A stretch of 37,894 nucleotides of DNA from an uncultured Pseudobdellovibrionaceae bacterium (GTDB lineage Bacteria; Patescibacteriota; Minisyncoccia; Moranbacterales; GCA-2747515): contig CAZMCZ010000001.1 of the NCBI GenBank assembly GCA_964565145.1, forward strand, positions 29,025 through 66,918, read 5' to 3'. Below the pieces are notes generated by a model. That model ran no database searches. It saw nothing but the letters and a program-made list of their open reading frames with translations, and had not been told where the DNA came from. Below, one piece after another: positions 137 to 30,791 of this stretch; positions within the stretch are counted from its first letter, which is position 1, and every line of letters starts with the position of its first letter. The translations under genes were made by a program, and so were the position numbers.

Positions 137-165
137 TTGACAAGGGGAAAATTATTTGCTATAAT
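137..165 (+). promoter_or_regulatory. sigma70-type promoter, full consensus with extended -10
   Basis: TTGACA at 137-142, a 17-nt spacer, TGc at 157-159 and TATAAT at 160-165, all read directly. It lies about 150 nt upstream of the ATG at 313. Confidence 0.6.
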
Positions 166-171
166 GGTTCT

Positions 172-288
172 ATAAAGTAAAAGCGGGTGCGTTTGTCTAG
201 GGGGACAAACTCTTGTAGAGGAAACAGTACTGTTTTCATACAAGACACCCACTCTCTAAGCAGACGTCAGTCTGTTTTTTCTTTTTTT
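172..288 (+). ncRNA. candidate structured 5' leader (riboswitch-like or attenuator) or small RNA
   Basis: Hand-folded helices: GGGTG 185-189 pairs with CACCC 246-250. GTTTGTC 191-197 pairs with GACAAAC 204-210 (loop TAGGGG). TCTTGTA 211-217 pairs with TACAAGA 239-245, extended by 221-226 with 231-236. A further hairpin CAGAC 261-265 / GTCTG 270-274 is followed by T6CT7 (275-288). I recognise no known RNA family. Confidence 0.35.
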
Positions 289-312
289 AATTCATTAATA
301 CGTTAGAAGCGT

Positions 313-1062
313 ATGCAAAAACAAAAACACATTTCCCGCAAAAAGGGAACGGCATATGTGCTTGGAGCATTAGCACTTTTTGTCGCAGCGCCAGCACTCG
401 GTGCTATTTTGGTGCAGAACTTTACGCAATGGGATGTCGTCGTCGACACGCCACCAATTGCAAAAGTACAAGGTGCCGATGCCAATTACGATGGTGATGG
501 CAATGACACAACAGGGTATTTGCAAGTAAACCTTGGTCAAACAATAACAAATAATGACTCAACACTTGGCACACCAGGTGGAACGGATACACAGCTTGCA
601 CATGAGGAAATCTCTTTCACATGTTTTGCGGGCGACCGTACATACTACACTGATGTCATTCAGTTAGACAACACAACAGCGAGTGAAGATTGGGATGTGA
701 CGCTAACAGTAGAGGCAGATCTCAATGGGAACGCTGCCGTGTCTGATACCTTTACCGCAGGTAATGCAGATATTTGGCTCTTTACATCAAGTCAAGATAG
801 TACCGGTGGTGCTATTACAGAGATTCCAAATCCTGGAAACTATGGCTCACTTACGCAGTGGTATAATGCCGCAGCGCCAAACGGAGCAATCCAACTTGAA
901 GTTGTCGGTGGCACATTGAGTGTTGCACAGGCAACAACGGGACCATTTACAATTCCTGCCGGCGAACAACGTCAATTGGGACTTGTTGTTGACTGTGGTT
1001 CTGATATGGTTGATGCACAAACAGGTACATTCCGTATGACTGTTGCAGCACAACCGCACTAG
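313..1062 (+). CDS. secreted or N-terminally anchored acidic Thr/Gly/Asp-rich protein, unknown family (candidate structural subunit)
   Basis: 249-aa ORF. The N-terminus has a basic n-region (RKKG) followed by the hydrophobic stretch AYVLGALALFVAAPALGAILV. It sits behind the consensus promoter and leader and is followed at once by an intrinsic terminator. No motif that I recognise. Confidence 0.8.
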   Translation: MQKQKHISRKKGTAYVLGALALFVAAPALGAILVQNFTQWDVVVDTPPIAKVQGADANYDGDGNDTTGYLQVNLGQTITNNDSTLGTPGGTDTQLAHEEISFTCFAGDRTYYTDVIQLDNTTASEDWDVTLTVEADLNGNAAVSDTFTAGNADIWLFTSSQDSTGGAITEIPNPGNYGSLTQWYNAAAPNGAIQLEVVGGTLSVAQATTGPFTIPAGEQRQLGLVVDCGSDMVDAQTGTFRMTVAAQPH

Positions 1063-1101
1063 AATAGTCTTAAGACTTCTAGAGAAAAAAGAACGGGTGA
1101 T

Positions 1102-1140
1102 GTGCAGTGAGGGCTTTCCTCACTGCACCACCTGTTTTTA
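1102..1140 (+). terminator. rho-independent terminator
   Basis: An 11-bp perfect stem, GTGCAGTGAGG 1102-1112 with CCTCACTGCAC 1118-1128, loop GCTTT, then a T-rich tail (TTTTT at 1135-1139). Confidence 0.75.
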
Positions 1141-1152
1141 TTTCGTATTTTT

Positions 1153-1752
1153 ATGAAAAAGTCATCACCAGAACATGCGCACGATCGTCACCGCACAAAA
1201 CACTACCGTTTTGTGGAATATATGGCATTTATTGTCAGTGCTCTCGTGCTTGTTGTCATCGGCATGTGGACATATGGGCATCAACACCAAGCGTTGCGAC
1301 AACAAAATCATGGCATTTCTGATGATTTTATAGAACAATCGGTGACGCCGAGGGTGTCATCGACAAATCATATAACGTTTTCGCTTCCACCATTGCCATC
1401 TGATGAGCAGATACACGCCATTATTAACAAGGTTTTTGTGCAGACATGTGATGGTTGTACCCAGCAACCATTAGAATGTCTCACGCAGTATCGCATAGAT
1501 AAACGTCTTGTGCGTGCACCCGGATATGAATACCTTGCAGTTGATGTGCAAACCGGGTCAGCGACACATCCCGCTACGTATACGGTGATAATGGACATCC
1601 ATAACGATTATGCCGTTGTGCGTCACAGTGGCAGTGTAAACAACGCGGTGTGTAAGAAATGGCCACAAAAAAAGAATACAAGAAACGTTCTTGTGCCCGG
1701 CACAGATACGACGAAGGGATCGTTTCTCAGCGTGACTTCGTCAAAAGAATGA
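1153..1752 (+). CDS. single-pass membrane protein with Cys-containing extracytoplasmic domain, unknown family
   Basis: 199-aa ORF with a His/Arg-rich N-terminus, one TM segment (FVEYMAFIVSALVLVVIGMWTYG) and a CDGC..C motif. Its ATG lies 12 nt after the terminator tail. No Shine-Dalgarno site. Confidence 0.6.
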   Translation: MKKSSPEHAHDRHRTKHYRFVEYMAFIVSALVLVVIGMWTYGHQHQALRQQNHGISDDFIEQSVTPRVSSTNHITFSLPPLPSDEQIHAIINKVFVQTCDGCTQQPLECLTQYRIDKRLVRAPGYEYLAVDVQTGSATHPATYTVIMDIHNDYAVVRHSGSVNNAVCKKWPQKKNTRNVLVPGTDTTKGSFLSVTSSKE

Positions 1753-2074
1753 ACGTGTAAACCCCACAACACTTTCAAGAATGATCATGATTCCCCCACA
1801 CAAAAACAATCATCATAAAACAACGATTATAGCGTTTGTACGACGCGTCGGTTTTGTGTTTTTGTATCGGTGTGACGACATTCTTTTTGACATTGTGCGA
1901 CTGTATGGACGAGGTGTTTATCGGCGTATTGTGCGCGTAAAGGGTGTGGTGGCGTTGTCTATGGTGGCACGTTGGCAGAAAAGGAAACGCGTTGTTCGGC
2001 GATGGCGTTTTAAGAGAAAAACGATTGGCACAACGACATATTATCGAGATTTCCAGAGAAAGGTTAAGGATCGC

Positions 2075-5000
2075 ATGACGATGCGAATAATATCATTGCG
2101 CGCTGTGGGGGCGGGGTTTGGTATTTTGATCCTTTTCCTTTCTTTGGCAACCTCGCAGTTTTATAGCGTGAATGATTTGTATGCGGAAATCAAACCGCAA
2201 AACTTCGTGGAAAACACCTCTACGGTTGGTCCGGGCTTGGAAATGCTGTCCTATGAGACGCGCGCAGAAAATACAAAAACCACAAAGGCGGATTTTGATA
2301 GCGGAACATATAGCAACGGACAATTTCTCTCCGGTCACGATGATGTGGCGTCTTTTGTGGCAAGCGATGATTATCTCACGCTTGGACACTATGGTGCCTA
2401 TGCACCAGACACATCAGAAAACGATTGGTGGGATGATGATGGAGATAGTAGCACCAAATATCATTGGCGGTATCGTAAATGCTTCACGATAGACAACAGT
2501 GCCAGTGCTGATGCTTTGATAGAATATCCCATTTACCTTTCTGTTGATACGGCAACGCTGGTTGGTGCCGGGAAGATGCTTGCAAGTGGTGATGACATTC
2601 GTTTTACCAATAACGACGGCGATGTCCTTCCGTTTCAGATTGCCGATGATATGAATAGCGCGTCAACGCGCTTTTGGGTGCAGGTTGATCATATCGCTTC
2701 CGGCGCACAGGAAGACCTCTGCATGTACTATGGCTATATTGGCAGTGGGACACCACCGGCGCAAAGCAATCAGGAAGCGGTTTTTCGCTATAGTACGCCG
2801 AAGGACATCTATTATGTTGTTGCAGATCGTGCAGAGGGAAGCAAGACGCAATTTAGCAGTTACGCCGATGGTAATGATGTATCGGTAGCCAACTATACAA
2901 AAACATTAACGGCATATGAATCCGATATTTATCCAACAAACATTACAACATTGACGCAGACCAGCGCCATAAGCACCACAAAGCCCATTAACGCAACGTA
3001 TAATGCCAATGGTACGGACAACCTTGTTCCGGCACATTTTGCCGGAGAGCATTTTGTCTATCGTATGGACCGCTATACCAATCAGTTTTCCTTTATCTCA
3101 CCGTGGTGTGATGCTGATGTAGAGGTGCGCAATGAAAATAACGCCCTTGTCGCTAATGGTTCTTTTACGATTGCACAGGGCACAATGCATAATCTCTCCA
3201 CAAACAACAGCGCCGGAAATGGCATTGCAAATGACAGCGCGGTGATTGTTGATGTGACAAATAACTGTCCTATTCTTGCACAACACCATAGCAATAACGG
3301 CGGTGATAGTTTTGTCATGCACCCAGCAGAACGTGAGTGGTATGGTGTCGGTTCCGGCAATATACAGATTGCAGCGCTCAATGACAATACATCTGTGACA
3401 CTCTATCGTAGTAGCGGTGCATCAAACACGTATACACTGCAACGGGGTGAAAATGTCATGATTAATGATGCAGGCTCGCAGGGCTCAGATCCGGCACATC
3501 ATGTGGTGGCTGATCAACCGATTGGTGTCGGTTCGTTGGCTGATGGTGATGGCGGGGAAGCGACGACATTTTTGCCGGTGGAGGAGATGGGTTATCGTTA
3601 TTATATCGCAGATGATACACAGTATATCGCTATCGCTACGCGCGCCGGCATAACAACGACTGTTGATTTGTACAATGATGCAACAGTTTGTGACAACGGT
3701 GCACCCGATGAAACACAAACGGTTTCTCCGACGGGAAATAATCCGGGAAAAGTTTACTTTGGTGCGACGAGTGCGGGCAATCATATTCCTGCCGGTGCGT
3801 GTATTGTCGCCGATGAACCAATCGTTGCTTACAATGAGTACAATGGTGCGGGTGACGAACACAATATCTGGAATGAAGTCCAAAATCGGCAGTTTGTGGG
3901 TGCCGTGCCGACGCAGAGCTTTGGCGCAGAAGAAATCGGTCAATGGCATCTGGATGCAACACATACATGGATTCGGCGCACGCCCATAACCATTACTAAC
4001 ACCACTGCAACGGCCGTCAATGATTATCAAGTGCATATTGATTTGAGTACGGTTACGACGAGCGGATTTTTTGATAAGACGCAGGTTGATGGTGGCGACA
4101 TCCGCATTGCCGGAGTCCTGGGCGATGGTACAGATGATATCGTCTATGCTCTTGATACGTTTGACCGTACTAGTGCAACAGGGGATTTGTGGGTGCGCGT
4201 GCCAAGCATCCCAGCAAATGGAAGTACGACATTTTATATGTATTACAGTCCCATTGGTGTGGATGTTGCGGGATTGGGAAGCGTGTTGTGGCTTGATGGA
4301 GCGGACAGTGCCACGATTACGCAAACAGCATCGCGTGTGAGTCAGTGGAATGATAAATCCGGTAATAGCAATGACGTTACACAAAGTGCCAATGCACGCA
4401 AACCGGAGGTAACGATTGATAACGGACATCAAGTATTGGATTTTGCGACCGATTATATGCGTGATGATAGCGGACTTTTTGGGACGGCAAGCTATGATGA
4501 TTCTTATGTTTTTGTCGTTATGAAAAATAAGGTTCTTCCGGAAAACGGCGCGCTGTTTTATGAGCCAATCGTCGGACCCGGATCTAGTCGCTATAGCGCT
4601 AATGCGCCGTGGGGTACAGAAGTGCGGTATTATCCCAATGCCGGCACCAATGCGGCGTCACGACTTTCCGGTGTCTATGGTGGTGATACGACAACCTATC
4701 ATACCGTGCGCTTTGAAGCGCATAATGGCGGTGCGCGCGCGGTTTCTCGTGATGGCGTTCTTTTGGTGGGAGATACCAATGGGACATCGTTTACCGGCAA
4801 TGGTGGGAGTTTTACCGTTGGTGCCTATGCTTCCGGAGCGCGCATGCAGGATATGTATCTGGGTGAGATGATTGTCATCCCTACGGCGTTAACACCGACA
4901 CAGGTACAAAACGTTGAGGCGTATTTAACACAAAAATGGATTAGTGGACCAACGACGACCCTCACAACAACGGGCGATCATATGGCGGTATTTACCACCA

Positions 5001-7054
5001 CAGCGCCCGTGCCAAATTATTACATTGTTGACCAACGCGCGCTTTCTGAACAATTGTCCATTATTTCTTTTGCAGATGACAACCACGTCAATGACACGGT
5101 TACAACGCAGACACTTTCAGAGGGGCAGATAGCCACACTTCCTTTTGGCGACGGCATTGCGCAGACGGATGTTTATCGTGTCACACGGCCACTGCATATT
5201 GACTTTGACGCCGACGCTACGGATTCTGCCGTTCCAATCGGATATGCCGGAAAGGAATTTGTGTATAATGTTGGGCGAAATAATGACGTGTTTAGTTTTT
5301 ATGCGCCGTTTGGCGATGCACAGATTCAGATTCAACAAAGTGGCGCTACCGGTTGGACGACGTTACAAAGCGTGATGCTATCGGCAGGAAATGGTCTAAC
5401 GGTTGCGCAAAATATCACCAACAATCACGCATTTAAGATTGTGTCTGATGAGCCAATTCTTGCCTTTCATCGCAATCAATCGTATGACTCAAAAATCCTC
5501 TATCCGACACACCTTGCGCTTGAGCCAAATTCCGGAAAGTATGAGCTTTATGGTATTGGGTCGAGCTCTTTGCGTCTTGCATCCGCCAGTGATGCTACCG
5601 TGACGCTCTATCGAAGTGATGGCACGCAGAGCACAATCACACTCAATGCCGGCAATAACTTTGTCTATAGTGAAAGTGGTGGTGGTGCGCAGGGTGATTC
5701 ACGTGGCTATCATATCGTCTCCGATGTGCCGATTGGTGCGACAAGCTACGCTGATGCTGATGGTGGTGAGACGGCCGTGTTTGTTTCGCAACGAGAATTT
5801 AGCGATACCTATGTCCTATCCAGCCCTGTACAGTATATGAGCATCGTGACACGAGATCCCGGTGTCACCTGTCGTGTGTATGATGCTCTTGGCGTGGAAG
5901 TCACCAGTGGTCCCGGCGCAATGGATCACGTGCCACCACAGACAAGCACAAACAACGCACTTCCATATCCTAATCGACTACACATTGGTGGTAATGACAC
6001 GTCCGATCCGGCGTTTTTCTCTGCGGGATACCGTATGCAGTGTGATGCGCCGGTCTATGCATATTACGAACAGCATGTTGGCGGACTCAAAACAGATGAG
6101 ACGAGTTGGCTCAGTTGGCCACAGGGACGTACGCGCAATGCTCTGGAGCCACAAATTGCCGACGTGGACACAGCACAGGAAGAAGGCCTTTATTTTGAAA
6201 GTGGTTTTGACAGTGGAAGTGCCGGCACTGACGCAGAAGCAACGGCAACGTATCTTTTTGATGTGAGCGGAATCGTTTACGGCGGTGATACGTATTGGCG
6301 AGACCTTTTGTGGGAAGAGGTCGTGAGTGATCGTAGTGGTGAAAATGCCGTAGAACAAATCACATTGGAGGTCGCTTATGCCGACCCAACGCCAACATGC
6401 AGTAGCGCGACGTACAGTGCCTTTGCACCGCTTACTGCCGTGACGGTGTCGTCATCATCAAGCACCACCCTTGCCCACGAAACAAGAACAACGCAGACAA
6501 AACGTGGCATGATTGCAGGGACGGCCAGTGACCATAGTTGTATCAAGGTGCGCGCTACCGTGCGTACCGGTGACGAAGCGTTTGCGCCGGCATTAAATAA
6601 TTTGCGCGTGGGATATTATGTGCCCACGGTATTGGAGGGACAAACAGATACGCCAACAATCAACATTGATGGTGCAACAAGTGGCATGGCACAAGAGTAT
6701 CGTATCCTCAAGGTGCGTACCAATGACACGGGACTTGCAAACTCTGAGGCCTTTATGACGTATCATGATGTGAGTACGCCGGGCGTTTTTTCTCAGGCAG
6801 ATTTTGATCTTGTAGAAGAAGGAAGCCTCACAACACACTCACAATTCCAGTTCCCACCGTTTCCATCAGTATCACCGACGTCCGCCGGCAATCATACTCC
6901 ATTTGACAGCACGCACGCTACAATGCTCTATGTCACGCATGAGCGCTCTTTGGGGTCTGTGGAGACGATTGACCTTTCTTTTGATGTGGATATTGCGACG
7001 GCGGGCGGTCCGGTCCTTAGTCGTGATGTATCACTTTCTTTTAGCGGATTATAA
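2075..7054 (+). CDS. giant N-terminally anchored surface protein with two DUF2341-like domains, a LamG/concanavalin-like domain and a duplicated ~380-aa module
   Basis: The ORF is open from 1781. I place the start at ATG 2075 (MTMRIISLRAVGAGFGILILFLSLA signal anchor), which is preceded by AAGGA at 2066-2070. DUF2341-like segments: CFTIDNS..YPIYLSVD..GDDIRF..FWVQV..MYYG (about nt 2462-2755) and TPITITN..YQVHIDL..GGDIRI..LWVRVPSIPANGSTTFYMYY (about nt 3965-4255). LamG-like segment: LWLDGADS..VSQWNDKSGNSNDVTQ...EMIVIP (about nt 4283-4939). Confidence 0.9.
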   Translation: MTMRIISLRAVGAGFGILILFLSLATSQFYSVNDLYAEIKPQNFVENTSTVGPGLEMLSYETRAENTKTTKADFDSGTYSNGQFLSGHDDVASFVASDDYLTLGHYGAYAPDTSENDWWDDDGDSSTKYHWRYRKCFTIDNSASADALIEYPIYLSVDTATLVGAGKMLASGDDIRFTNNDGDVLPFQIADDMNSASTRFWVQVDHIASGAQEDLCMYYGYIGSGTPPAQSNQEAVFRYSTPKDIYYVVADRAEGSKTQFSSYADGNDVSVANYTKTLTAYESDIYPTNITTLTQTSAISTTKPINATYNANGTDNLVPAHFAGEHFVYRMDRYTNQFSFISPWCDADVEVRNENNALVANGSFTIAQGTMHNLSTNNSAGNGIANDSAVIVDVTNNCPILAQHHSNNGGDSFVMHPAEREWYGVGSGNIQIAALNDNTSVTLYRSSGASNTYTLQRGENVMINDAGSQGSDPAHHVVADQPIGVGSLADGDGGEATTFLPVEEMGYRYYIADDTQYIAIATRAGITTTVDLYNDATVCDNGAPDETQTVSPTGNNPGKVYFGATSAGNHIPAGACIVADEPIVAYNEYNGAGDEHNIWNEVQNRQFVGAVPTQSFGAEEIGQWHLDATHTWIRRTPITITNTTATAVNDYQVHIDLSTVTTSGFFDKTQVDGGDIRIAGVLGDGTDDIVYALDTFDRTSATGDLWVRVPSIPANGSTTFYMYYSPIGVDVAGLGSVLWLDGADSATITQTASRVSQWNDKSGNSNDVTQSANARKPEVTIDNGHQVLDFATDYMRDDSGLFGTASYDDSYVFVVMKNKVLPENGALFYEPIVGPGSSRYSANAPWGTEVRYYPNAGTNAASRLSGVYGGDTTTYHTVRFEAHNGGARAVSRDGVLLVGDTNGTSFTGNGGSFTVGAYASGARMQDMYLGEMIVIPTALTPTQVQNVEAYLTQKWISGPTTTLTTTGDHMAVFTTTAPVPNYYIVDQRALSEQLSIISFADDNHVNDTVTTQTLSEGQIATLPFGDGIAQTDVYRVTRPLHIDFDADATDSAVPIGYAGKEFVYNVGRNNDVFSFYAPFGDAQIQIQQSGATGWTTLQSVMLSAGNGLTVAQNITNNHAFKIVSDEPILAFHRNQSYDSKILYPTHLALEPNSGKYELYGIGSSSLRLASASDATVTLYRSDGTQSTITLNAGNNFVYSESGGGAQGDSRGYHIVSDVPIGATSYADADGGETAVFVSQREFSDTYVLSSPVQYMSIVTRDPGVTCRVYDALGVEVTSGPGAMDHVPPQTSTNNALPYPNRLHIGGNDTSDPAFFSAGYRMQCDAPVYAYYEQHVGGLKTDETSWLSWPQGRTRNALEPQIADVDTAQEEGLYFESGFDSGSAGTDAEATATYLFDVSGIVYGGDTYWRDLLWEEVVSDRSGENAVEQITLEVAYADPTPTCSSATYSAFAPLTAVTVSSSSSTTLAHETRTTQTKRGMIAGTASDHSCIKVRATVRTGDEAFAPALNNLRVGYYVPTVLEGQTDTPTINIDGATSGMAQEYRILKVRTNDTGLANSEAFMTYHDVSTPGVFSQADFDLVEEGSLTTHSQFQFPPFPSVSPTSAGNHTPFDSTHATMLYVTHERSLGSVETIDLSFDVDIATAGGPVLSRDVSLSFSGL
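2786..3895 (+). repeat. internal protein module copy A (approximate bounds)
   Basis: Aligns by eye with copy B. Examples: YYVVADRA vs YYIVDQRA, HFAGEHFVYRMDRYTNQFSFISPW vs GYAGKEFVYNVGRNNDVFSFYAPF, VTLYRSSGASNTYTL vs VTLYRSDGTQSTITL, and ADQPIGVGSLADGDGGEATTF vs SDVPIGATSYADADGGETAVF. Confidence 0.7.
4994..6115 (+). repeat. internal protein module copy B (approximate bounds)
   Basis: Same evidence as copy A. The offset between the copies is about 736 residues. The similarity is at protein level only. Confidence 0.7.
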
Positions 7055-7103
7055 AAATGATGTATACTGGAGAGTATTATTATCATCACTATTTTATATT
7101 TTT

Positions 7104-7601
7104 ATGACACAATCTACGACAGCACAGAAACGCTTTTTTTCACAAGAAAATTTGCAACAATTTTTCCGTGATGTGTTTTCTGTTGCGATGTATTTTCTCG
7201 TTTTTCGTATTTTCTTTGCCTTCCTCTTCGCCTTTCTCTTTGCGCAGGAGTGGCATGTAGAGAAGGTGTGGCACTGGCTCCCCATTATCGCCTTTAATGC
7301 GGACGTTGCGACTTTTGAGACGATGAATTCTTATGCGGTTTTTTCCGCTTCCGTTGCCATCTTTGGTATGTTTGTGTACTATGGCATCCACAAAAGCATT
7401 CGTATGCGTCCACGGTTGTGGGCGTGGTTTGTGGGTGTGTGTATGGTTTTTTTGCAGTATAGTGTTTTGGTTTTTCTCAATCGGTATTTGCAGTTTGGCG
7501 TACATGTCAATCTTTGGTTGCCACTAGGGCTTCTTGTTGTTGGCGCAAGTGGTATTCTCTGGATGCGAGAACGCACATGGCGCAGAGAGATGGAAGTCTA
7601 A
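7104..7601 (+). CDS. small polytopic membrane protein (about 4 TM), unknown family
   Basis: The listed ORF 6903-7601 overlaps the giant gene. The first ATG after that gene's stop is at 7104 (MTQSTTAQKRFF...), giving 165 aa with hydrophobic segments FSVAMYFLVFRIFFAFLFAFLFA, AVFSASVAIFGMFVYYGI, LWAWFVGVCMVFLQYSVLVFL and LWLPLGLLVVGASGILW. Confidence 0.7.
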   Translation: MTQSTTAQKRFFSQENLQQFFRDVFSVAMYFLVFRIFFAFLFAFLFAQEWHVEKVWHWLPIIAFNADVATFETMNSYAVFSASVAIFGMFVYYGIHKSIRMRPRLWAWFVGVCMVFLQYSVLVFLNRYLQFGVHVNLWLPLGLLVVGASGILWMRERTWRREMEV

Positions 7602-7630: not shown

Positions 7631-7664
7631 ACTCCGCGGTTTCCACCGTCGGGGTTTTTGTTTT
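7631..7664 (+). terminator. rho-independent terminator (one bulge)
   Basis: ACTCCGCGG 7631-7639 pairs with CCGtCGGGGT 7646-7655 (one bulged T and one G-U pair), loop TTTCCA, followed by TTTTTGTTTT. Confidence 0.55.
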
Positions 7665-14363: not shown

Positions 14364-15179
14364 ATGATAGATGCATCTTATAACAAACACATGCCATTAC
14401 GTAATCGCATTTCTATCACTCTGCGCAAGGACCTCTTGCAACAAATTGATTATGCAATCCAACAGGGTGACGCACAAAATCGTTCCAATGCCATTGAACA
14501 AGTTTTAATGGAAAAGTTTGGCAATGCACATGCACGCAGAGCCGTCATTCTTGGCGGAGGTTCCGGCGTTGACGTTGATGGAGTGCGGACGTCTGTTCTT
14601 CTCGCAACAGTGGACGGGAAAGTGCTCATTGATCGGCATATTGAGCGTTTAAAAGCTGTTGGCGTTGAGGAAATCATTCTCTCCGTCGGTGCTTTCGGTG
14701 ATGCGGTGCGCTCTGTGGTTGGTGATGGGTCGCGTTATGATATTTCCATTGTCTATTTTGAGCGTGATCACGGCACGGCAAGCGTGTTGCGCAAGGCGCG
14801 GAGCTTACTTAAAGAGACGTTTATCATGCTTAATGGGCACATCATCATTGACGATGTTGACTTTGAAGATATGATTTTGGCGCACAAAAATATGCGCGCG
14901 CTTTGTACGATTGGGTTAACTACGATCGCGCAACCGGGCAATTATGGGCAGGTGAAGATGCGTGGGTCACATGTCGTACAGTACGTAGAGAAACCCGGTG
15001 ACAAAGAAAGCATCTCGCACATCATCAATGCCGGCATCTACATCATTGAGCCGGCAGTTTGTGCTCTTGTGCGACCGGACGAAGCATCTATTGAACAAAA
15101 CATCTTTCCACTTCTGACGCGTAAGGGGATGTTGCATGGGTATCTGTTGGATACGCCTTGGCAACGATATAAAAAATAA
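14364..15179 (+). CDS. ribbon-helix-helix (CopG/NikR-like) domain fused to a sugar-phosphate nucleotidyltransferase-fold domain with a degenerate active-site loop
   Basis: N-terminal RISITLRKDLLQQIDYAIQQGDAQNRSNAIEQVLMEKFG has the RHH pattern. The remainder aligns by eye with NTP_transferase proteins (AVILGGG..., GVEEIILSVG, DGSRYDISIVYFER, GTASVL, LNGHIIID, YGQV, VEKP, INAGIYIIEP). The usual GGxGTRLxPLT..PKP loop is replaced by GGGSGVDVDGVRTSVLL. Confidence 0.78.
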   Translation: MIDASYNKHMPLRNRISITLRKDLLQQIDYAIQQGDAQNRSNAIEQVLMEKFGNAHARRAVILGGGSGVDVDGVRTSVLLATVDGKVLIDRHIERLKAVGVEEIILSVGAFGDAVRSVVGDGSRYDISIVYFERDHGTASVLRKARSLLKETFIMLNGHIIIDDVDFEDMILAHKNMRALCTIGLTTIAQPGNYGQVKMRGSHVVQYVEKPGDKESISHIINAGIYIIEPAVCALVRPDEASIEQNIFPLLTRKGMLHGYLLDTPWQRYKK

Positions 15180-15188
15180 ACAACGCCT

Positions 15189-16274
15189 ATGAAAACGACA
15201 ATGAAAGCGGTTATTCTTGCCGGAGGCTCCGGCACACGACTCTGGCCATTGAGTCGTAAGCAAAAACCAAAGCAGTTTCAAAAAATGACATCGGATCAAA
15301 CGATGTTGCAAGAAACGTATGCGCGACTTGCAAAACATTTTTCGCCGGATGCCATTTACATCTCCACAAATCAGGACTATGTGCAGGAAGTCTCTAAAGA
15401 ACTGCCGGAAATCAATAAACGCAACATCATTGCCGAGCCTCTTGCACGCAATACCGCTCCGGGCATTGCACTTGCCGCGGCAACGATTGCGCAACACCAT
15501 GGCGATGATGCAATGATTGCGGTCTTTCCCGCAGATCATATGATCAAAAACCACGCCGTGCTCTTTCAGGCACTTGATAACGCTGAGGCGTTTCTCACAC
15601 AACAGCCAACATACATCATAACGCTTGGTCTGGCGCCAACTTATCCGGAAACGGGGTATGGTTATATCAAAAAAGGTATGGTGCTTGATAAGCAAAAGCA
15701 GATTTTTGCCGTTGATCGTTTTGTGGAAAAGCCGGACGCAGAAACGGCGCAAAAGTATATCCGTGAAGCATCGTATTATTGGAATGCGGGGATGTTTGTG
15801 TTTGTTGCCGGCGCCATGCTTGCAAAATATCAAAAATACATTCCAAAAACTTATGAATGCATCAAAGAAATTCAAGAGGCGATGGCGACAGATTTTGCAA
15901 CGGACGTTTGTCGTAAGCAGTACGAAAAAACAGATGCGATCAGTGTTGATTATGCGATTATGGAAAATGATTCTCATGTGGCCGTGATACCGATTGCGGA
16001 TCTCGGATGGAGTGATGTGGGGAGTTGGGCGGCGCTAAAGGACGCGCTTGTGGGTGATGGTGATGAGCACTTGGTACAGGGCGAGCATATTGATTTTGAG
16101 AGCACAAACTTGGTCGTGCATGGTGACACCAAGCCCATTGTCACTATCGGATTGAAAGATTTGGTTATTGTGGACACAGAGCATGCGTTATTGGTCTGTG
16201 ATCGTCGTCATGCGCAATTTGTCTCCAGCGTGGTGAAGTCTCTCCAAGACACCAAACATAAAAAAATTATCTAG
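15189..16274 (+). CDS. manC: mannose-1-phosphate guanylyltransferase
   Basis: AVILAGGSGTRLWPLSRKQKPKQF signature. 361 aa with no C-terminal isomerase domain. Confidence 0.85.
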   Translation: MKTTMKAVILAGGSGTRLWPLSRKQKPKQFQKMTSDQTMLQETYARLAKHFSPDAIYISTNQDYVQEVSKELPEINKRNIIAEPLARNTAPGIALAAATIAQHHGDDAMIAVFPADHMIKNHAVLFQALDNAEAFLTQQPTYIITLGLAPTYPETGYGYIKKGMVLDKQKQIFAVDRFVEKPDAETAQKYIREASYYWNAGMFVFVAGAMLAKYQKYIPKTYECIKEIQEAMATDFATDVCRKQYEKTDAISVDYAIMENDSHVAVIPIADLGWSDVGSWAALKDALVGDGDEHLVQGEHIDFESTNLVVHGDTKPIVTIGLKDLVIVDTEHALLVCDRRHAQFVSSVVKSLQDTKHKKII

Positions 16275-16277
16275 TCT

Positions 16278-17372
16278 ATGCCACATATTTACCCTATTGA
16301 TACAACACGAAAGGAGATTTATCAAAAAAAAGTCTGGGGCAATTCCAAAGAACTGGAAATGATTATGGGTCCTCTGCCGGCGTGCTATGCGCAGGAGACG
16401 ATTGGTGAGATTTTTCTCGCATCGACGCATCCGGATGGTCCAAGCGCTTTTGCCGATGGAACGCGTTTTGATACGATGATTGCATCCGAAAAATGCAAGC
16501 GCACTTTCGGGCATGGGGTTTATGGGTATGGAGAATTTCCATTGTTACTCAAGATTTTGAGTGCAACGCAATCACTGTCCATACAAACACACTATGCAAA
16601 TAAGGTAGAGGCCTGGTATGCTCTTTCTGATGGAGAGATGCTTTACGGATTGACGGCCGAAGGTGAGAAAATGGTGGTTCGTGCAGAGGGTCGCAAGACA
16701 TTGGGTGAGCTTTTGCATCGCACGTCTGACGTGGAAACGCTTGCGCGATATTTTAATTACGTCACCTTTAAAAAGGGTGAGGCCTATGTCATCCATGCCG
16801 GCATGGTCCACGCACTGCTCTCGGGGACGGTTTTTGAGCCACAAAAAAATTCCAATCTCACAAATCGCGGTGGTGATTGGGGACGAAATCAGCCGGACCG
16901 CCCGTTGCATTTGAAGGAGTTTTTTGAATCGCTTTATCCTTTTGCTATTACGCCGACGCCAATCAAAAGGGTCGTGTGTGATGATTCGGCCGGCGCAACT
17001 ATGCACTATGTTTTTGCGACAAGCCATTTTGTCGTGCAAGAGCTTCACGTGCGGACGTCCTATGATTTTGCGGGCAGTCGGCATCGTTTTGTCATCGGTT
17101 TTTGCATTGAGGGCATTGTAGAGATCACCCATGGCAAGAGGCATTTTAGCGCCGTTTCCGGAAGTGTTTTTTTGATTCCGGCGGAAGACGCCGTGTGGCA
17201 TCATGCCGGCTCGGGGACAATCCTCTATACATTTGTTGCGCGCCTTCTGGAAGATGTTATTTTACCATTAATCAATCAAGGTATTGCACGTGAGGAAATC
17301 ATTCAACTCGGAGGCGTTATCCCAAAAGAAAACGATCTCTATATTGAGATGAAAGAGCACGGATTGGTGTAG
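16278..17372 (+). CDS. manA: class I mannose-6-phosphate isomerase (cupin)
   Basis: FPLLLKILSATQSLSIQTHY..VEAWY and VIHAGMVHAL match the class I PMI metal-site motifs. It starts 3 nt after the manC stop. Confidence 0.72.
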   Translation: MPHIYPIDTTRKEIYQKKVWGNSKELEMIMGPLPACYAQETIGEIFLASTHPDGPSAFADGTRFDTMIASEKCKRTFGHGVYGYGEFPLLLKILSATQSLSIQTHYANKVEAWYALSDGEMLYGLTAEGEKMVVRAEGRKTLGELLHRTSDVETLARYFNYVTFKKGEAYVIHAGMVHALLSGTVFEPQKNSNLTNRGGDWGRNQPDRPLHLKEFFESLYPFAITPTPIKRVVCDDSAGATMHYVFATSHFVVQELHVRTSYDFAGSRHRFVIGFCIEGIVEITHGKRHFSAVSGSVFLIPAEDAVWHHAGSGTILYTFVARLLEDVILPLINQGIAREEIIQLGGVIPKENDLYIEMKEHGLV

Positions 17373-17804: not shown

Positions 17805-19835
17805 ATGACAGAACAAACAACGCCGTATGCAACAGCGCGTCGCGCGCGTAGAAGTGTGCAAGGCGCCGGTGGATCCAATCGTCGCGGACAAAAAAATGCA
17901 CAAGAAGTGCGTACGCACGCGCAACAAAAGCGTGATGTGGCACTTGGTATTGCGACAAAGAAAACAACAAAAAAAGTAACAAAGAAAACAACAAAGAAAG
18001 CGACAAAGAAACACAGCAGAAAACGCAGTGGGAACAAGCGTGGTGGCAACGGTCGTGGACGCGGACGTTTTGCACAGCCACAAACAAATGCTGAGCGTGT
18101 GCTCGACATCACGTCACGTGATGGCGACACAAAGGCGCCAAAGATTCCGCCGATTGAAAAAGACACATTACGGATTATCCCTATCGGAGGCAATGAGGAA
18201 GTGGGTCGCAATATGGTCGTTTTTGAATATGGTACCGGTGGCGGGAAGAGCGACATCGTCGTTGTTGACATCGGTATGCAGTTTCCGGAAGAAGATATGC
18301 CCGGCATTGATTATATCGTGCCAAATGCGAGTTACCTCAAAGGAAAGGAAAAAAACATTCGTGGTGTGATTTTTACGCACGGGCATCTTGATCATATCGG
18401 TGCAGCGCCCGTTGTTCTTAAACAATTGGGATATCCGCCAATTATTGCGCGCGATCTTACGCTGGCGCTGGTCAAAAAGAAAGTAGAAGATGGCAATCCC
18501 GGAGCGGCAAGCCTTCTCAAAACAATCAGTGTAAAAAATCTTGACAAGAAAATGTCACTGGGCATTTTTAAGGTAAACTTTTTTGAAGTAGAGCATTCCA
18601 TAATGGATTCTATGGGTGTTGCATTGGAGACGCCGGTTGGCACGCCAATTCATCTTGGTGACTGGACGATTAGTCATGATCCTGCCGATGGAAACAAGAT
18701 TACATATGAACAACTCAGCAAGCTTCCCGCTCCACGCATTTTGATGCTTGAGAGTCTTGGCGCGGTAAAGACGAGTACAAGCAGTGAAAAAATCGTCCAA
18801 GGCAATTTGGAAGACTTGATTAAGGGCGCAAAGGGACGTGTGATCTTGGCGACATTTGCTTCTCAGGTGAAACGTATCAAACTTCTTTTGGAATTTTGTG
18901 AACGTGTTGGTCGCAAGGTTGCGCTTGATGGATACAGTATGCGTACAAATGTTGAGATTGCCAAAGAGCTTGGCTATATCAAAGTAAAGCCCGATACGCT
19001 CATTCCAATCAACGATATTCATAAATATCCGGATCATAAGATTTTGGTATTGTGCACCGGCGCACAAGGCGAGCACAATGCCGCGCTCAATAAGATTGTG
19101 ACGGGGCATCATCGATTTATAAAATTAAAAAAAGATGATACGATTGTGTTTTCATCGTCTGTCATTCCCGGAAATGAACGCACCATCCAGCGTCTCAAAG
19201 ACAACTTGTATCGCAAGTGTGACAATGTCATCCATAGTGACATCATGGACATCCATATGGGAGGACATTCAAACTCTTCTGATATTCAAGAAGTTATCAA
19301 AATGGTAAAGCCACAGTATTTCTTGCCGGTGTATGCTAATCATTTTTTCCTCAAAGAAGCGGTGAAGCGCGCTGTGGAAATCGGCTTCCCAAAGGGAAAG
19401 ACGGCGGTTTTGGACAATGGACAGATTATAGAATTTACAAAGAAGGGCGTTAAAGTGCGCAAAGAAAAAGCGGATAGTAGTTATGTGTTTGTTGACGGGC
19501 TTGGCGTGGGTGATATTGGGCACATGGTATTGCGTGATCGTCAGGCACTGGCCGAGGATGGCATGTATACGATTACCGTTCTTATCAACAGTCGGAGCAA
19601 AAAGGTCATCAATGTGCAGATTACCTCACGAGGCTTTATTTTTGTGAAAGACAATTTTGATATCGTCAATGAGACCAAGAAAAAGGTTGAAAAAATTGTT
19701 GCAGAGACAACAAGCAAAGACGCCACGATGGATTTTCGTGAAATAGAAAAAATGATTCGTGAGCGCATTGGTGAATACCTCTTTCAAAAAACACAACGTC
19801 GCCCGATGATCCTTCCCGTGGTGATTGAAGTATAG
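17805..19835 (+). CDS. rnj: ribonuclease J with ~120-aa basic N-terminal extension
   Basis: The core starts at LRIIPIGGNEEVGRNM, with the metallo-beta-lactamase motif THGHLDHIG. The total of 676 aa is longer than I expect for this family. Confidence 0.9.
   Translation: MTEQTTPYATARRARRSVQGAGGSNRRGQKNAQEVRTHAQQKRDVALGIATKKTTKKVTKKTTKKATKKHSRKRSGNKRGGNGRGRGRFAQPQTNAERVLDITSRDGDTKAPKIPPIEKDTLRIIPIGGNEEVGRNMVVFEYGTGGGKSDIVVVDIGMQFPEEDMPGIDYIVPNASYLKGKEKNIRGVIFTHGHLDHIGAAPVVLKQLGYPPIIARDLTLALVKKKVEDGNPGAASLLKTISVKNLDKKMSLGIFKVNFFEVEHSIMDSMGVALETPVGTPIHLGDWTISHDPADGNKITYEQLSKLPAPRILMLESLGAVKTSTSSEKIVQGNLEDLIKGAKGRVILATFASQVKRIKLLLEFCERVGRKVALDGYSMRTNVEIAKELGYIKVKPDTLIPINDIHKYPDHKILVLCTGAQGEHNAALNKIVTGHHRFIKLKKDDTIVFSSSVIPGNERTIQRLKDNLYRKCDNVIHSDIMDIHMGGHSNSSDIQEVIKMVKPQYFLPVYANHFFLKEAVKRAVEIGFPKGKTAVLDNGQIIEFTKKGVKVRKEKADSSYVFVDGLGVGDIGHMVLRDRQALAEDGMYTITVLINSRSKKVINVQITSRGFIFVKDNFDIVNETKKKVEKIVAETTSKDATMDFREIEKMIRERIGEYLFQKTQRRPMILPVVIEV
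17955..18014 (+). repeat. five tandem 12-nt repeats (ACAAAGAAAnnn) encoding (T-K-K-x)5
   Basis: ACAAAGAAAACA, ACAAAAAAAGTA, ACAAAGAAAACA, ACAAAGAAAGCG and ACAAAGAAACAC, read directly inside the rnj 5' region. Confidence 0.85.
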
Positions 19836-22445: not shown

Positions 22446-23810
22446 TTATGCTCTGATGAGTGCGAGGATCTCATCACGTTTTTGTTGCATGAGCTCCTTC
22501 GTATCGGCTTCCAAGTTGAGGCGTAGGACCGGTTCGGTATTGCTTGCGCGGACATTAAACCACCAGCGTGACCCCTTTGGCGCATCCCAGTAAGAAATTT
22601 TGATGCCATCGAGTTCGTGCAGGGCGCCATCGTGGTAGGTTTCTTTGAGTTTTTGCAGTGTTGCGGTAACGTCTTGTACTTCTGAATTGATTTCGCCACT
22701 ATGGTAATATCGTCGCAAGTCTGCGACCAGTGCGGAGATGTTTTTGTTGGTCTGTGCCATGAGATTTAAGAGCGTGAGTGCCGCATAGGTTGTGAGTTCG
22801 CCATTTTTGTTGGCTTTGAAATAGTAGTGACCGGAAAGCTCGCCGGCAAAGAGTGCATCTTCTTCGCGCATTTGCGCTTTGATAAACGCATGTCCGACAC
22901 GACACTCATGCGCAATGCCCCCGGCTTCTTCAATCACCTCTTTGACGGCCATGGAAGATCGTAAGTCGTAAAGGATGGTTGCGTGCGGCTCTTTTTTGAG
23001 GAGGACCTTGGCAAGCAGTCCGGTAACCAAGTCCATAGAAATAATGTCGCCATGTTCATCAACAAAGCCAATGCGATCGGCATCTCCATCATAGGCAATT
23101 CCGAGACTGGCACCGACTTCTATGACTTTTTCACGCAGGTCATCAAGTGTGTCGGTATTGAGTGGATTGGCTTCATGTGCGCTATAGGGGTGGTCGAGGT
23201 CGCAGTAGAGTTTGGTGATTTTGATGTTTTTGGGAAAGCGTTCATAAATGGGGAGCTCAAGGACGCCCATGGTATTTGCACAGTCAATGACAAGGTGGAA
23301 TTTTTTGTTTGCTAGGCGTGCAAAATGTGCAACGTAGTCTTCATAGGGTGTCTTGATATTCGTTGGCGTAACCTTTCCGGATGGTGCGGTCTCTGAATCC
23401 TCTTTTTTTGCAGGCATTGTGAGGACAGCATCACGAATATTATTGAGACCGGACACGCTCCCCACCGGTGCTGCATTTTTGCGACAGATTTTGATGCCGT
23501 TGTACTCTACGGGGTTGTGTGATGCTGTGACGGCGACGGCGCCATCAACAGGGAGATGCCATGATGCAAAGTAGAGCATCGGCGTTGTGATCATTCCCAA
23601 ATCAATGACATCACATCCCGCATCGGTGATGCCGAGTATGAGATGCTTCATCAGTTGTACGCCATGGGGTCGCGCATCACGTCCAACGGCAAGTGTTTTT
23701 GCGCCGAGCTCTTTGACCGTTGCCACACCGATTTTGTAGGCGGCGTCTTCATCAAAATCTGTGGGATAGATACCGCGAATGTCATAGGCCTTGAAAATTT
23801 CTTTGTTCAT
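22446..23810 (-). CDS. phosphomannomutase/phosphoglucomutase
   Basis: TASHNP phosphoserine loop (AVAVTASHNPVEYNGIK), GIAYDGDADR metal-binding loop, 454 aa. Confidence 0.9.
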   Translation of the reverse strand: MNKEIFKAYDIRGIYPTDFDEDAAYKIGVATVKELGAKTLAVGRDARPHGVQLMKHLILGITDAGCDVIDLGMITTPMLYFASWHLPVDGAVAVTASHNPVEYNGIKICRKNAAPVGSVSGLNNIRDAVLTMPAKKEDSETAPSGKVTPTNIKTPYEDYVAHFARLANKKFHLVIDCANTMGVLELPIYERFPKNIKITKLYCDLDHPYSAHEANPLNTDTLDDLREKVIEVGASLGIAYDGDADRIGFVDEHGDIISMDLVTGLLAKVLLKKEPHATILYDLRSSMAVKEVIEEAGGIAHECRVGHAFIKAQMREEDALFAGELSGHYYFKANKNGELTTYAALTLLNLMAQTNKNISALVADLRRYYHSGEINSEVQDVTATLQKLKETYHDGALHELDGIKISYWDAPKGSRWWFNVRASNTEPVLRLNLEADTKELMQQKRDEILALIRA

Positions 23811-26771: not shown

Positions 26772-26774
26772 GAT

Positions 26775-27197
26775 ATGAAAAAGACGCTTTTGCGCGTGAT
26801 GGTTCAGTCGTCGCACGCGACGCATATTCAATTTTTCCGTTATGGCGTTGTCGGCGTTGTCGCGATGCTTGTTGATATGAGCGTTTTTTACTATGCAAAT
26901 ACGCTGTTAGAGTGGCATTATGTTGTGGCACAGACAATCGCCTTTTTATGTGGTATAGCCATCAATTATGTGTTGAGCATCTTATGGGTCTTTACATCAA
27001 AGCACTCTCGTGCGAGGGAAATGATTGGTTTTTTTGTCATTGGCGTTGGTGGACTCTTGTTGAGTTATTTGTGCCTTTTTCTTTTTATTGATATGCTTCA
27101 TGTACATCAGTTGGACAATATGGTTGCAAAGGCCCTAACGACCGTCATTGTTTTTCTTTGGAATTTTGGTATGCGTAAGCGGTATGTTTTCGCTTAA
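26775..27197 (+). CDS. GtrA family membrane protein
   Basis: 140 aa with 4 TM segments. FFRYGVVGVVAMLVDMSVFY near the N-terminus and WNFGMRKRYVF near the C-terminus are typical of GtrA-like proteins. Confidence 0.8.
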   Translation: MKKTLLRVMVQSSHATHIQFFRYGVVGVVAMLVDMSVFYYANTLLEWHYVVAQTIAFLCGIAINYVLSILWVFTSKHSRAREMIGFFVIGVGGLLLSYLCLFLFIDMLHVHQLDNMVAKALTTVIVFLWNFGMRKRYVFA

Positions 27198-29890: not shown

Positions 29891-30270
29891 ATGAAAAATA
29901 TAAATGTTCTTGTGGCACGGATCTATCGCATCGGTTTTTTGCTAACAGTGCTTCGCGTGCGTCTGCACAATATGTTGCGGAAATTTATCGTGAGAAGTCC
30001 ACAGATAACGATTATTGGTCTACACTCAAAGAGTATATAGAGACGCAACGCAAAGAGCATGAACGGCAAGAGCGAGAACGTCTTGCTCGCCTTGCTGATG
30101 ATGCATTGGCAAAATCACAAGCGCAGGCACGAGAGCGTCAACGGGCACGGGAGCGCGCTGCTGCATTAGCGCAACAAAGAGCGCAAGCACAAAGAGCGCA
30201 ACAGAAAAAAAGAACAATCAAAAAAAGAGTTATTAAAAAAAAGAAAAGTCGAAAATCACGCGCGAGTTAA
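29891..30270 (+). pseudogene. frameshifted (or mis-assembled) gene for a small Cys-x-Cys / coiled-coil / basic-tail protein
   Basis: A frame open from 29848 to the TAA at 30268-30270 has no ATG, GTG or TTG near its 5' end. ATG 29891 is out of frame by one base. One extra A in the A5 run (29894-29898) would give MKKYKCSCGTDLSHRFF...ERQERERLARL...KKRVIKKKKSRKSRAS. Confidence 0.35.
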
Positions 30271-30350
30271 GTGTGATCGTAAGGCGTGGCGTGGTCATGG
30301 TATCCTATGAGAGTAAAGAATGAGTACGTGGTGGTGCTTTTCAGGCTTTG

Positions 30351-30734: not shown

Positions 30735-30791
30735 ACGTTCTCTTTTAGATATTTATATCATCTAGTATACTTTATAGTAATCATTAATACA

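Follow-up and report, generated by a model that had tools for sequence, protein, structure and literature searches.

A predicted donor-strand-complemented surface fibre in an ultra-small bacterium, with an AbpA-like pilin and a giant DUF2341 protein that bears a copy of the pilin strand

The AbpA pilus of Pyrobaculum calidifontis, the cannulae of Pyrodictium, the thread of Sulfolobus and the TasA fibre of Bacillus subtilis are all donor-strand-complemented fibres and have been grouped as the TasA superfamily (bioRxiv 10.64898/2026.01.04.697558). In the B. subtilis system, the accessory protein TapA acts as the donor of an N-terminal strand and is located where the filament begins (PMC10151520); a like strand-donor logic led to the proposal that Saci_0405 caps the thread of Sulfolobus acidocaldarius (PMC9715654). 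Here we describe a four-gene cassette that probably encodes a surface fibre of this superfamily, with AbpA as its closest solved relative and with a giant protein docked to the fibre through a copy of the pilin's own strand. The cassette lies in a 37,894-nucleotide stretch (hereafter the window; positions 29,025 to 66,918 of contig CAZMCZ010000001.1, assembly GCA_964565145.1) from an ultra-small bacterium of the Candidate Phyla Radiation (CPR) belonging to the Moraniibacteria. An earlier note, made from the letters of the window, had listed a promoter, a folded leader, a 249-residue acidic secreted protein, a terminator and three further co-oriented genes, all of which are in place on re-examination of the sequence. 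It had taken them for a TasA-like arrangement, a surface fibre or apparatus for attachment in which the major subunit is abundant and the accessory or tip components are of low copy, and the homology of gene 1 to a solved donor-strand pilin bears this out. The same homology, seen both in sequence and in Foldseek matches to 7UEG, overturns the accompanying statements that the apparatus was of unknown type and that no pilin signature was present, as it places gene 1 in the TasA/AbpA superfamily.

On the evidence of its sequence and its modelled fold, the product of gene 1 is an AbpA homologue and a predicted donor-strand pilin of the TasA-superfamily type. A phmmer search of the PDB sequences returned a single significant match, to AbpA (7UEG_A; E 3e-4, residues 8-122), and a profile of CPR and actinobacterial family members (A8) matched AbpA over nearly its full length (E 1.8e-10, residues 13-212). 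AlphaFold2 (AF2) gave a predicted local distance difference test score of 86.5 for the precursor and of 89.3 for the predicted mature form, which has about 219 residues and an isoelectric point (pI) of 4.05. The structure-based search that the earlier note had suggested for this protein led to the same relative: with the mature model as query, Foldseek placed AbpA first (7ueg_A; E 4e-9, template-modelling (TM) score 0.67) and the Sulfolobus thread subunit second (7pnb_A; E 1.4e-5, TM score 0.51), with the Pyrodictium cannulae and CanA lower down (E 9e-3 to 2e-2) and FimG also weak. Neither Pfam nor NCBIfam has a model that recognises gene 1. Among 1.84 billion representatives, searched exhaustively with a profile, only 66 relatives came to light; these are the CPR family itself, CPR paralogues, and alanine-rich proteins of 200-247 residues, one of which is named by NCBI as Acidimicrobiales.

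The similarity to AbpA extends to the processing site and to the segment predicted to connect the subunits. Gene 1 has a single N-terminal hydrophobic segment (residues 16-34), and in the alignment the experimentally observed cleavage site of AbpA, AMA↓T (PMC9245690), falls on ALG↓A. Because the N-terminus of AbpA is experimentally defined, we infer from this alignment that gene 1 is cleaved at Gly30↓Ala31; its relatives carry A/V/S-x-A/G at positions -3/-1. The predicted mature N-terminus, A↓AILVQNF, is near-invariant and is the most conserved segment of the pilin family, Q35 and N36 showing no variation within the CPR family and hardly any when actinobacterial relatives are included. It aligns with the AbpA donor strand TLTFTNLTYWLINAT, with AbpA TLTFTNLTYWLINATLPP standing opposite gene 1 AILVQNFTQWDVVVDTPP.

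Both by sequence and by fold, then, the AbpA/AbpB system (PDB 7UEG; PMC9245690) is the closest relative. Like AbpA, gene 1 has a predicted Sec signal with a putative A-x-A-type site, followed by a predicted N-terminal donor strand of the pattern x-L-x-h-x-N-h-T-x-W ... P-P, and at neither locus is a signal peptidase of its own, a chaperone or an usher encoded close by. The Pyrobaculum abp operon further includes three proteins with four transmembrane segments, the number found in gene 4, together with one large protein, rich in beta structure, whose only transmembrane segment is N-terminal (PMC9245690). The systems differ in their hosts, crenarchaeal for AbpA and bacterial (CPR, Actinobacteria) for the family described here, and sequence identity is only about 20%. 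Compared with AbpA, the predicted mature pilin of the window is longer, at 219 residues to 180; it is also acidic and has a conserved pair of cysteines. Its partner is a giant DUF2341 protein with a copy of the donor strand, whereas that of AbpA is the 410-residue, TapA-like AbpB.

Several further features of the pilins deserve mention. Residues 57-65 of gene 1 (window 481-507) form an acidic, DxDGDGxD-like loop, ANYDGDGND, which is either present or cleanly missing in close homologues, as an indel of seven residues, and may be a Ca2+ site like that of the calcium-dependent AbpX fibres. Cys104 and Cys228 (FTCF and VDCG; window 619-627 and 991-999) are invariant in the CPR family; most actinobacterial pilins lack this pair and have another conserved pair instead, a difference that suggests lineage-specific disulfides. 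Paralogues of the pilin (in locus L008, 11331-12170, and P0094, P0096, P0098, P0099 and P0093) consist of a transmembrane segment, a donor-like strand (for example A↓SLLIQIRF or A↓IMIENRIV), a long proline/threonine-rich linker and, of the pilin domain, no more than the C-terminal two-thirds. In one of them, a protein of 947 residues, this part of the domain forms the end. By analogy with TafF of the Tafi system, of which they are reminiscent, they are candidate minor or anchor subunits. Self-complementation of the pilin by a docked N-terminal strand was not seen in the AF2 monomer of the mature form and is hence not claimed.

The other protein that carries the argument is the product of gene 3, a giant with one transmembrane segment and two DUF2341 domains (PF10102; E 7.6e-21, 74.8 bits against a gathering cutoff of 23.4). 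Part of its earlier description has to be revised. The note had presented it as a 1,659-residue protein with DUF2341 and LamG domains, and the DUF2341 assignment stands; LamG (PF13385) gave no Pfam match in gene 3, whether whole or in segments, at E <= 1, and is recorded only for the homologue in locus L006. The length was probably too short as well. The form of 1,757 residues is probably the real one: relatives keep its basic N-terminal extension in the same frame, and it is this longer version that public annotations call. Comparison of gene 3 in segments with Pfam brought out nothing beyond DUF2341, and there was no match among PDB sequences. The protein is homologous to the giants that adjoin every related pilin gene with a giant beside it, including the actinobacterial ones (E 2e-49 and 2e-43).

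Just past their signal or transmembrane segment, these giants carry a motif that resembles the donor strand of the pilin. In the window it is EIKPQNFVENTSTV, following LYA; in other CPR loci it is ATLVQNFVTATMDA after VSA (L004), EILVQNFTENENIV after IEA (L006), EILVQNFTQYKNVV after IEA (L018), TLIPQNFINNNQIA after ALA (L022) and SIIVINVAQSDVTV after IVA (L008). Actinobacterial giants show it as KVVFANFIVGSA after AVA in L026, where the adjoining pilin starts SVIIQNFIVANV, and as TVRQSNHVLADV after ALA in L024. The motif is present in each of the 18 distinct CPR giants for which the contig includes the N-terminus, and in two of the three actinobacterial giants. A regular expression for the core of the motif found 39 matches in the 812 open reading frames (ORFs; 158,000 residues) of the loci, and 37 of these were at the N-termini of pilins or giants. 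The strand of the window's gene 3 is identical to that of its own pilin at 5 of 14 positions, while the best of all other 14-mers in its 1,600-residue body reaches 4 of 14. Over 17 loci the mean identity is 6.6 of 14, and cognate pairs score above shuffled ones (p = 0.00015), it being understood that the loci are phylogenetically related. The giants have no similarity to the body of the pilin, which implies that they would have a strand to donate and no recognisable groove to accept one. The presence of the pilin strand motif at their N-terminus points to strand donation in the manner of TapA, with the giant at one end of the fibre, and we propose, from the sequence, that gene 3 encodes a strand-donating nucleator, cap or adhesin.

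Whether the giant is released or retained is suggested differently by different lineages. In L004, L008, L024 and L026 the strand motif comes directly after a canonical A-x-A signal-peptidase site, which favors release, and the earlier view that the giant is simply anchored by its N-terminus is probably incorrect for this reason. In the subclade of the window, the 12-residue spacer between transmembrane segment and strand and the conserved cytoplasmic extension favor retention. This extension, about 100 strongly basic residues ahead of the transmembrane segment (window 1781-2074), is kept in frame in L006, L011, L012, L016 and L020; the giants of L004, L008 and L022 and those of the Actinobacteria have plain signal peptides and no such extension. 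The giant may sit at the distal tip or at the cell-proximal base, according to the polarity of the fibre and to whether its signal is cleaved.

The linkage of these genes is a further support for a common function. Pilin, giant and four-transmembrane protein are linked in all 13 full-length CPR loci (the window, L004, L006, L008, L012, L013, L015, L016, L018, L019, L020, L022 and L036), and on shorter contigs (L011, L014, L027, L030, L032 and L037) the pilin is followed by the start of a giant. In L008 the giant and the four-transmembrane gene are on the opposite strand, still adjacent. The arrangement recurs in Acidimicrobiales-like loci: L026 combines a DUF2341 protein of 806 residues with a four-transmembrane protein of 222 residues and a pilin; in L025 a gene 3 homologue (E 2e-49) is joined by a four-transmembrane protein as well as a pilin; in L024 the pilin adjoins a gene 3 homologue; and L023 pairs a four-transmembrane protein with a pilin. 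A metagenome scan gave 11 more loci, mostly short, which agree with this synteny and add little diversity. As judged from sequence, the three-gene module of pilin, giant and four-transmembrane protein crosses phyla, being found in the CPR and in Acidimicrobiales-like Actinobacteria. The order of four genes that the earlier note had proposed to look for in relatives is conserved in respect of genes 1, 3 and 4; gene 2 is not universal.

With these elements in hand, the locus can be set against the other members of the superfamily. The fold of its subunit is related to those of solved members, its pilin is homologous in sequence to one of them, and a nearby accessory, gene 3, has a donor strand, this last at the sequence level only. 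TasA-TapA-SipW of B. subtilis (PMC9674648, PMC10151520) belongs to the same superfamily, with the same predicted assembly chemistry, and likewise combines an abundant major subunit with a rare donor of an N-terminal strand that is confined to the start of the filament. It differs in that the gene order is reversed, the major subunit being first and closed off by a terminator in the window, and in the size of the accessory, 1,757 residues for gene 3 against 253 for TapA. No SipW or peptidase S26 domain was found in genes 2-4 or in the 21 other window ORFs scanned; AbpA loci, too, are without a SipW-type signal peptidase (PMC9245690). The second-best structural match, the Saci_0406 thread with its putative cap Saci_0405 (PDB 7PNB; PMC9715654), provides a parallel in that Saci_0405 has a donor strand but no acceptor groove and is a proposed cap or nucleator, and in that its major and minor components are unequally transcribed. 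The thread cap is a pilin-like paralogue, however, not a giant multidomain protein, and thread subunits carry isopeptide links, of which there is no sign in the window pilin.

More distant comparisons are also instructive. Like the locus described here, chaperone-usher pili (Fim/Pap) are donor-strand-complemented fibres with an adhesin at one end, but the window locus has no chaperone, usher or outer membrane; moreover, because the giant would donate a strand and FimH accepts one, the giant would occupy the opposite structural end from FimH. In Archaea, DUF2341 giants have been proposed as adhesins at the tip of type IV pili (PMC4858521), and such proteins have been noted among the giant proteins of Patescibacteria (PMC11809585). 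The likeness lies in the genetic coupling of a large DUF2341 surface protein to a pilin gene and in the inferred adhesive end. In the archaeal systems the coupling is to a type IV pilin by way of a class III signal-peptide helix, whereas here it would be to an AbpA-type pilin through a mimic of its beta-strand. The only literature found to name donor strands and Patescibacteria together is the AbpA paper, which notes just PF12389 matches in the phylum (PMC9245690).

Other kinds of surface fibre were considered and set aside. A chaperone-usher pilus finds no Pfam or NCBIfam chaperone or usher in the locus, a single 11-bit usher match in gene 2 being noise against a cutoff of 1,422. A sortase-assembled pilus is not indicated: gene 1 ends in TVAAQPH and gene 3 in LSFSGL, neither with an LPXTG motif, and the window has no sortase domain. 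As regards a type IV pilus, the N-terminus of gene 1 has no class III signal motif and the window has no T2SSE or PilC gene. TasA proper (PF12389, Peptidase_M73/camelysin) had no match in 31 members of the pilin family. A T2SSE gene is present about 4 kb upstream in L004 and is not conserved in the other loci.

Table 1. Positions of the features of the cassette in the window
Feature	Positions	Strand	Basis
Sigma-70-type promoter with extended -10 (TTGACA-17-TGcTATAAT)	137..165	+	12/12 match plus TG
Structured leader RNA, long imperfect hairpin with basal stem AAAAGCGGGUG...CAGUCUGUUUUUU and U-run at its end	175..290	+	fold, covariation
Small conserved hairpin extending over bases 1-2 of the gene 1 start codon	298..314	+	helix 5 of consensus
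Gene 1, AbpA-like major pilin precursor, 249 residues, pI 4.06	313..1062	+	homology, fold
Predicted Sec signal peptide of gene 1, cleavage A-L-G↓A after residue 30	313..402	+	alignment with AbpA
Predicted donor strand AILVQNFTQWDVVVD, mature N-terminus of gene 1	403..447	+	alignment, conservation
Intrinsic terminator after gene 1, 12-bp stem (1102-1128) and T-run	1094..1139	+	sequence
Gene 2, lineage-specific single-pass membrane protein, 199 residues	1153..1752	+	one transmembrane segment
Gene 3, giant DUF2341 surface protein, 1,757 residues (alternative start at 2075, 1,659 residues)	1781..7054	+	Pfam, homology
Pilin-like donor-strand mimic EIKPQNFVENTSTV in gene 3	2186..2227	+	12 residues past the transmembrane segment, preceded by L-Y-A
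First DUF2341 domain of gene 3	2588..2788	+	PF10102, residues 172-238 of the 1,659-residue form
Gene 4, conserved four-transmembrane protein, 165 residues, pI 9.7	7104..7601	+	four hydrophobic segments
Weak terminator-like hairpin after gene 4, 5-bp stem and T-run, probable end of unit	7636..7659	+	

The regulatory elements around gene 1 form a consistent picture, and the promoter-leader-terminator architecture recognized earlier proves to be conserved in relatives. The promoter is the sole full 12/12 match within the first 9 kb of the window, and TTGAC-17-TGnTATAAT occurs at the equivalent place 5' of gene 1 in nine relatives (L006, L010, L011, L012, L014, L015, L016, L018 and L020). From a predicted transcript start near 172, the next ~140 nucleotides (about 172-312) form one long hairpin followed by a U-run. 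The leader folds with a minimum free energy of -46.9 kcal/mol (z = -5.3), a value equalled by none of 200 shuffles, and the hairpin, ~110 nucleotides long, is kept 5' of gene 1 in ten loci. The RNAalifold consensus of these ten comprises 42 pairs, with 90% of cells paired against 44-55% in slid controls and compensatory changes in 14 pairs against 2-7; none of 500 shuffles reached the observed score. Helix 5 of the consensus has 7 pairs, is 91% paired and shows wobble as well as compensatory changes. A covariance model made from the leader (R1) matches the copy in the window with 53 bits (E 3.5e-9, 275 kb searched). All matches of at least 29 bits are inside pilus loci, none exceeds 25 bits elsewhere, and the few weaker matches outside these loci have E 0.03 or worse. 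In four relatives a paralogous copy lies between genes 2 and 3 (L006 11651-11756, L018 6337-6432, L020 11498-11606 and L011 11853-11948); its stem differs from that of the gene 1 copy by compensatory changes, and two of the four copies were outside the training set of the model. The window has no such second copy, and the more distant loci lack the leader.

Relatives have equivalent terminators after gene 1, and these shorter elements have in common with the leader a basal stem CGGGTG...CAyCyGTTTT. When the 275 kb were searched with a regular expression for such elements, 18 of 20 were inside pilus loci. These counts, together with the covariance-model matches of at least 29 bits, rule out that the CGGGTG...CCGTTTT hairpins are a generic, genome-wide terminator. 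Rfam gave nothing at gathering score in the whole window, and only noise at E <= 10 in 100-1200. The leader thus appears to be an undescribed, uncatalogued covarying cis-element specific to these loci. It is a candidate attenuator or 5' stabiliser, and may act as a conditional terminator, as a stabiliser of the 5' end of the mRNA or as a separate small RNA.

The two remaining genes are less well defined. Of the small proteins that the earlier note had put forward for profile searches, only gene 1 found a solved relative, in AbpA; genes 2 and 4 had no match in Pfam, NCBIfam or the PDB. Word-indexed homologue searches with genes 2 and 4 gave only the query itself or one match, and their alignments were made from the related loci. 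Gene 2 has a domain of ~110 residues with four invariant cysteines and no Pfam, NCBIfam or PDB match, its family profile included. It evolves fast, homologues being 23-34% identical against 59-86% for the pilins of the same loci, and occurs only in the leader-bearing subclade (the window, L006, L010-L012, L015, L016, L018, L020, L027-L030, L035 and L036); it is missing from more distant loci. Tafi loci use anchor proteins with a single transmembrane segment, and by that analogy gene 2 might, speculatively, be a lineage-specific accessory or anchor. Gene 4 has homologues beside the giant in the 12 other full-length CPR loci. An hhalign comparison of CPR gene 4 with the four-transmembrane proteins adjoining actinobacterial pilins gave a probability of 96.7% (E 3.6e-10, 110 columns). 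The family profiles matched nothing in Pfam or the PDB, and no protease or sortase signature was found in gene 4. One could speculate that the protein is a membrane platform, anchor or assembly factor.

A working model can be drawn from these observations. Promoter, leader and the terminator just past gene 1 would keep pilin mRNA far above that of the downstream genes, the anatomy being plain in the sequence and the ratio conjectural. Pre-pilin would be exported by Sec and, as the alignment with AbpA suggests, cut after Gly30 to expose AILVQNFTQWDVVVD. By homology and fold, the N-terminal strand of each mature pilin would then enter the beta-sandwich of the next subunit to give a non-covalent fibre. 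Since the giant has a copy of the pilin strand but no recognisable pilin domain, it would dock into the one free acceptor groove at an end of the fibre; the motif is there to be seen, the docking is our suggestion. Once docked, it might serve as nucleator or cap and present its 180-kDa adhesin-like ectodomain. More speculatively, the co-conserved four-transmembrane protein might be a membrane-embedded assembly or anchoring factor, and gene 2 a lineage-specific accessory.

Some observations weigh against such a fibre, or against parts of the model. In the AF2 monomer of the mature pilin, the N-terminal 18 residues are a coil and not a docked strand. None of the 31 pilin family members matches PF12389, the TasA model, even at E <= 10, or any other Pfam model. 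The strand copy in the window is at the weaker end of the range (5/14) and lies 12 residues from the transmembrane segment, not at a textbook cleavage site; the conserved basic extension on the cytoplasmic side, in the window's subclade, means that the N-terminus of the giant may be retained. The actinobacterial giant of L025 has no clear strand motif as called. Finally, hhalign scores between membrane proteins, such as those for gene 4, can be inflated by composition. A donor-strand-complemented fibre with the giant docked through its strand copy nonetheless seems to us the likely explanation of the cassette.

An alternative that we consider unlikely, though it deserves the most attention, is that gene 1 builds an unanchored matrix or bundling scaffold, a mesh resembling those of TasA or AbpX, or even wide, cannula-like tubes, and that the giant is only a nucleator near the membrane and not a tip adhesin. 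The TasA superfamily does build matrix fibres (TasA), bundles (AbpA), meshes (AbpX) and tubes (CanA), and CanA and the cannulae are among the Foldseek matches of the pilin; yet the best structural match is the AbpA pilus, not CanA. A mature pI of 4.05 and the DxDGDGxD-like insert also recall the calcium-dependent AbpX (bioRxiv 10.64898/2026.01.04.697558). A retained N-terminal transmembrane segment with a cytoplasmic extension in gene 3 would suit a membrane-proximal nucleator of the TapA sort, but a DUF2341-rich ectodomain of 180 kDa is big for a nucleator alone. Because the assembly chemistry would be the same, this possibility differs from a pilus with a docked adhesin in supramolecular form and role, not in kind.

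It is considerably less probable that the product of gene 1 does not polymerise at all. In such a case, it would be a secreted jelly-roll protein, for instance a lectin, a carbohydrate-binding module (CBM) or an envelope protein, and the likeness between the N-termini of genes 1 and 3 would be a signal for export, sorting or processing that is read by the four-transmembrane protein. A post-signal motif common to two secreted proteins that are always linked to a polytopic membrane protein does bear a resemblance to dedicated sorting systems. Sorting of the exosortase/PEP-CTERM type provides a precedent for dedicated systems of this sort, although the signals there are C-terminal. Gene 4, on the other hand, is without a protease or sortase signature, and although CBMs, tailspike domains and lectins figure among the weaker Foldseek matches of gene 1, the CBM and lectin matches have TM scores below 0.3 and are at least 4 orders of magnitude weaker than the leading one. 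Polymerisation is favored by the full-length profile homology of gene 1 to a pilin whose N-terminal strand shows in the filament map (PMC9245690), its conserved strand aligning with the AbpA donor strand residue by residue. That the four genes are not one unit, gene 1 being a stand-alone, highly expressed gene with its own terminator and genes 2-4 an unrelated adhesin operon, is hardly credible: a strong terminator does separate genes 1 and 2, gene 3 has its own leader copy in some relatives and the giant and four-transmembrane gene of L008 are on the opposite strand, but the linkage of pilin, giant and four-transmembrane protein outlasts rearrangement (L008) and cross-phylum transfer (L026, L025), the giant bears the N-terminal motif of the pilin, and one locus-specific RNA element stands 5' of both the pilin and the giant genes.

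If the cassette indeed specifies a donor-strand-complemented fibre, it is tempting to go further. More tentatively, and with rather less confidence than for the fibre itself, we suggest that the loci represent an unrecognised bacterial branch of the AbpA type, found in CPR Moraniibacteria and Acidimicrobiales-like Actinobacteria. Its fixed module would comprise an acidic pilin (mature A-[IV]-[ILV]-[VI]-Q-N-F), a strand-mimicking DUF2341 adhesin and a four-transmembrane factor of a new family, controlled in one CPR subclade by an RNA of ~110 nucleotides placed before the pilin and adhesin genes; in ultra-small bacteria the product could be a host-attachment organelle independent of type IV pili. 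For the attachment of ultra-small CPR bacteria to hosts or surfaces, type IV pili and giant surface proteins, themselves unexplained, have largely been made responsible, and the locus offers a concrete, testable alternative in the form of a predicted chaperone-free strand-exchange fibre. The link to an episymbiotic life style made in the earlier note is plausible in this context, but it is not specific, the same module being present in Acidimicrobiales-like Actinobacteria. While the kind of machine is known, the AbpA-like bacterial family, its fixed coupling to a four-transmembrane protein and to a DUF2341 giant that mimics its strand, and the locus-specific RNA appear to be undescribed.

The comparison would extend the AbpA branch, so far described in hyperthermophilic Crenarchaeota, to two bacterial phyla. 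It would also give a structural reason for the position of a giant DUF2341 gene beside a pilin gene, namely that the giant bears the fibre's own connecting strand, and suggests a general rule by which cap or tip proteins may be recognisable from a copy of the N-terminal strand of the pilin. The conserved four-transmembrane family becomes a nominee for the missing membrane component of the TasA superfamily, and the leader is an uncatalogued covarying element tied to a surface-structure operon.

The names borne by homologues assign the window to Candidatus Moraniibacteriota (CPR/Patescibacteria). The genes surrounding the cassette in the window are housekeeping genes, the first beyond gene 4 being a 2-oxoacid:ferredoxin oxidoreductase. 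At 34225-37894, running off the 3' end, the window encodes at least 1,223 residues of another large secreted protein, again of adhesin-like surface type, which has a signal peptide (...PSFASA↓AS) and SdrD_B, DUF11 and SpaA-like domains. Genes for the supply of GDP-mannose are found at 14364-17372, 22446-23810 and 25314-27197 (two nucleotidyl transferases, a phosphomannose isomerase and a phosphomannomutase), close to a PMT-family protein mannosyltransferase and GtrA. The mannose genes could serve to glycosylate the gene 1 pilin, which is rich in threonine and serine and has four N-x-S/T sequons, or the giant product of gene 3; glycosylation is known in archaeal relatives. Near-identical pilus loci in L011, L012, L013, L014 and L019 are labelled Micavibrio, Dojkabacteria or Pacebacteria, most other records being Moraniibacteriota, and these odd labels are probably due to mis-binning or mislabelling of metagenome-assembled genomes. 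The stretch 28000-30800 of the window is low in GC (0.32-0.37 against about 0.45); it contains a 295-residue ORF without a Pfam match (28934-29821), followed by ~1 kb with no plus-strand ORF of at least 110 residues. Lastly, a tandem repeat of 12/24 nucleotides, ACAAAGAAAACA, is present in about 3-5 copies at 17955-18027, in the 5' end of the ORF for RNase J (17805-19835).

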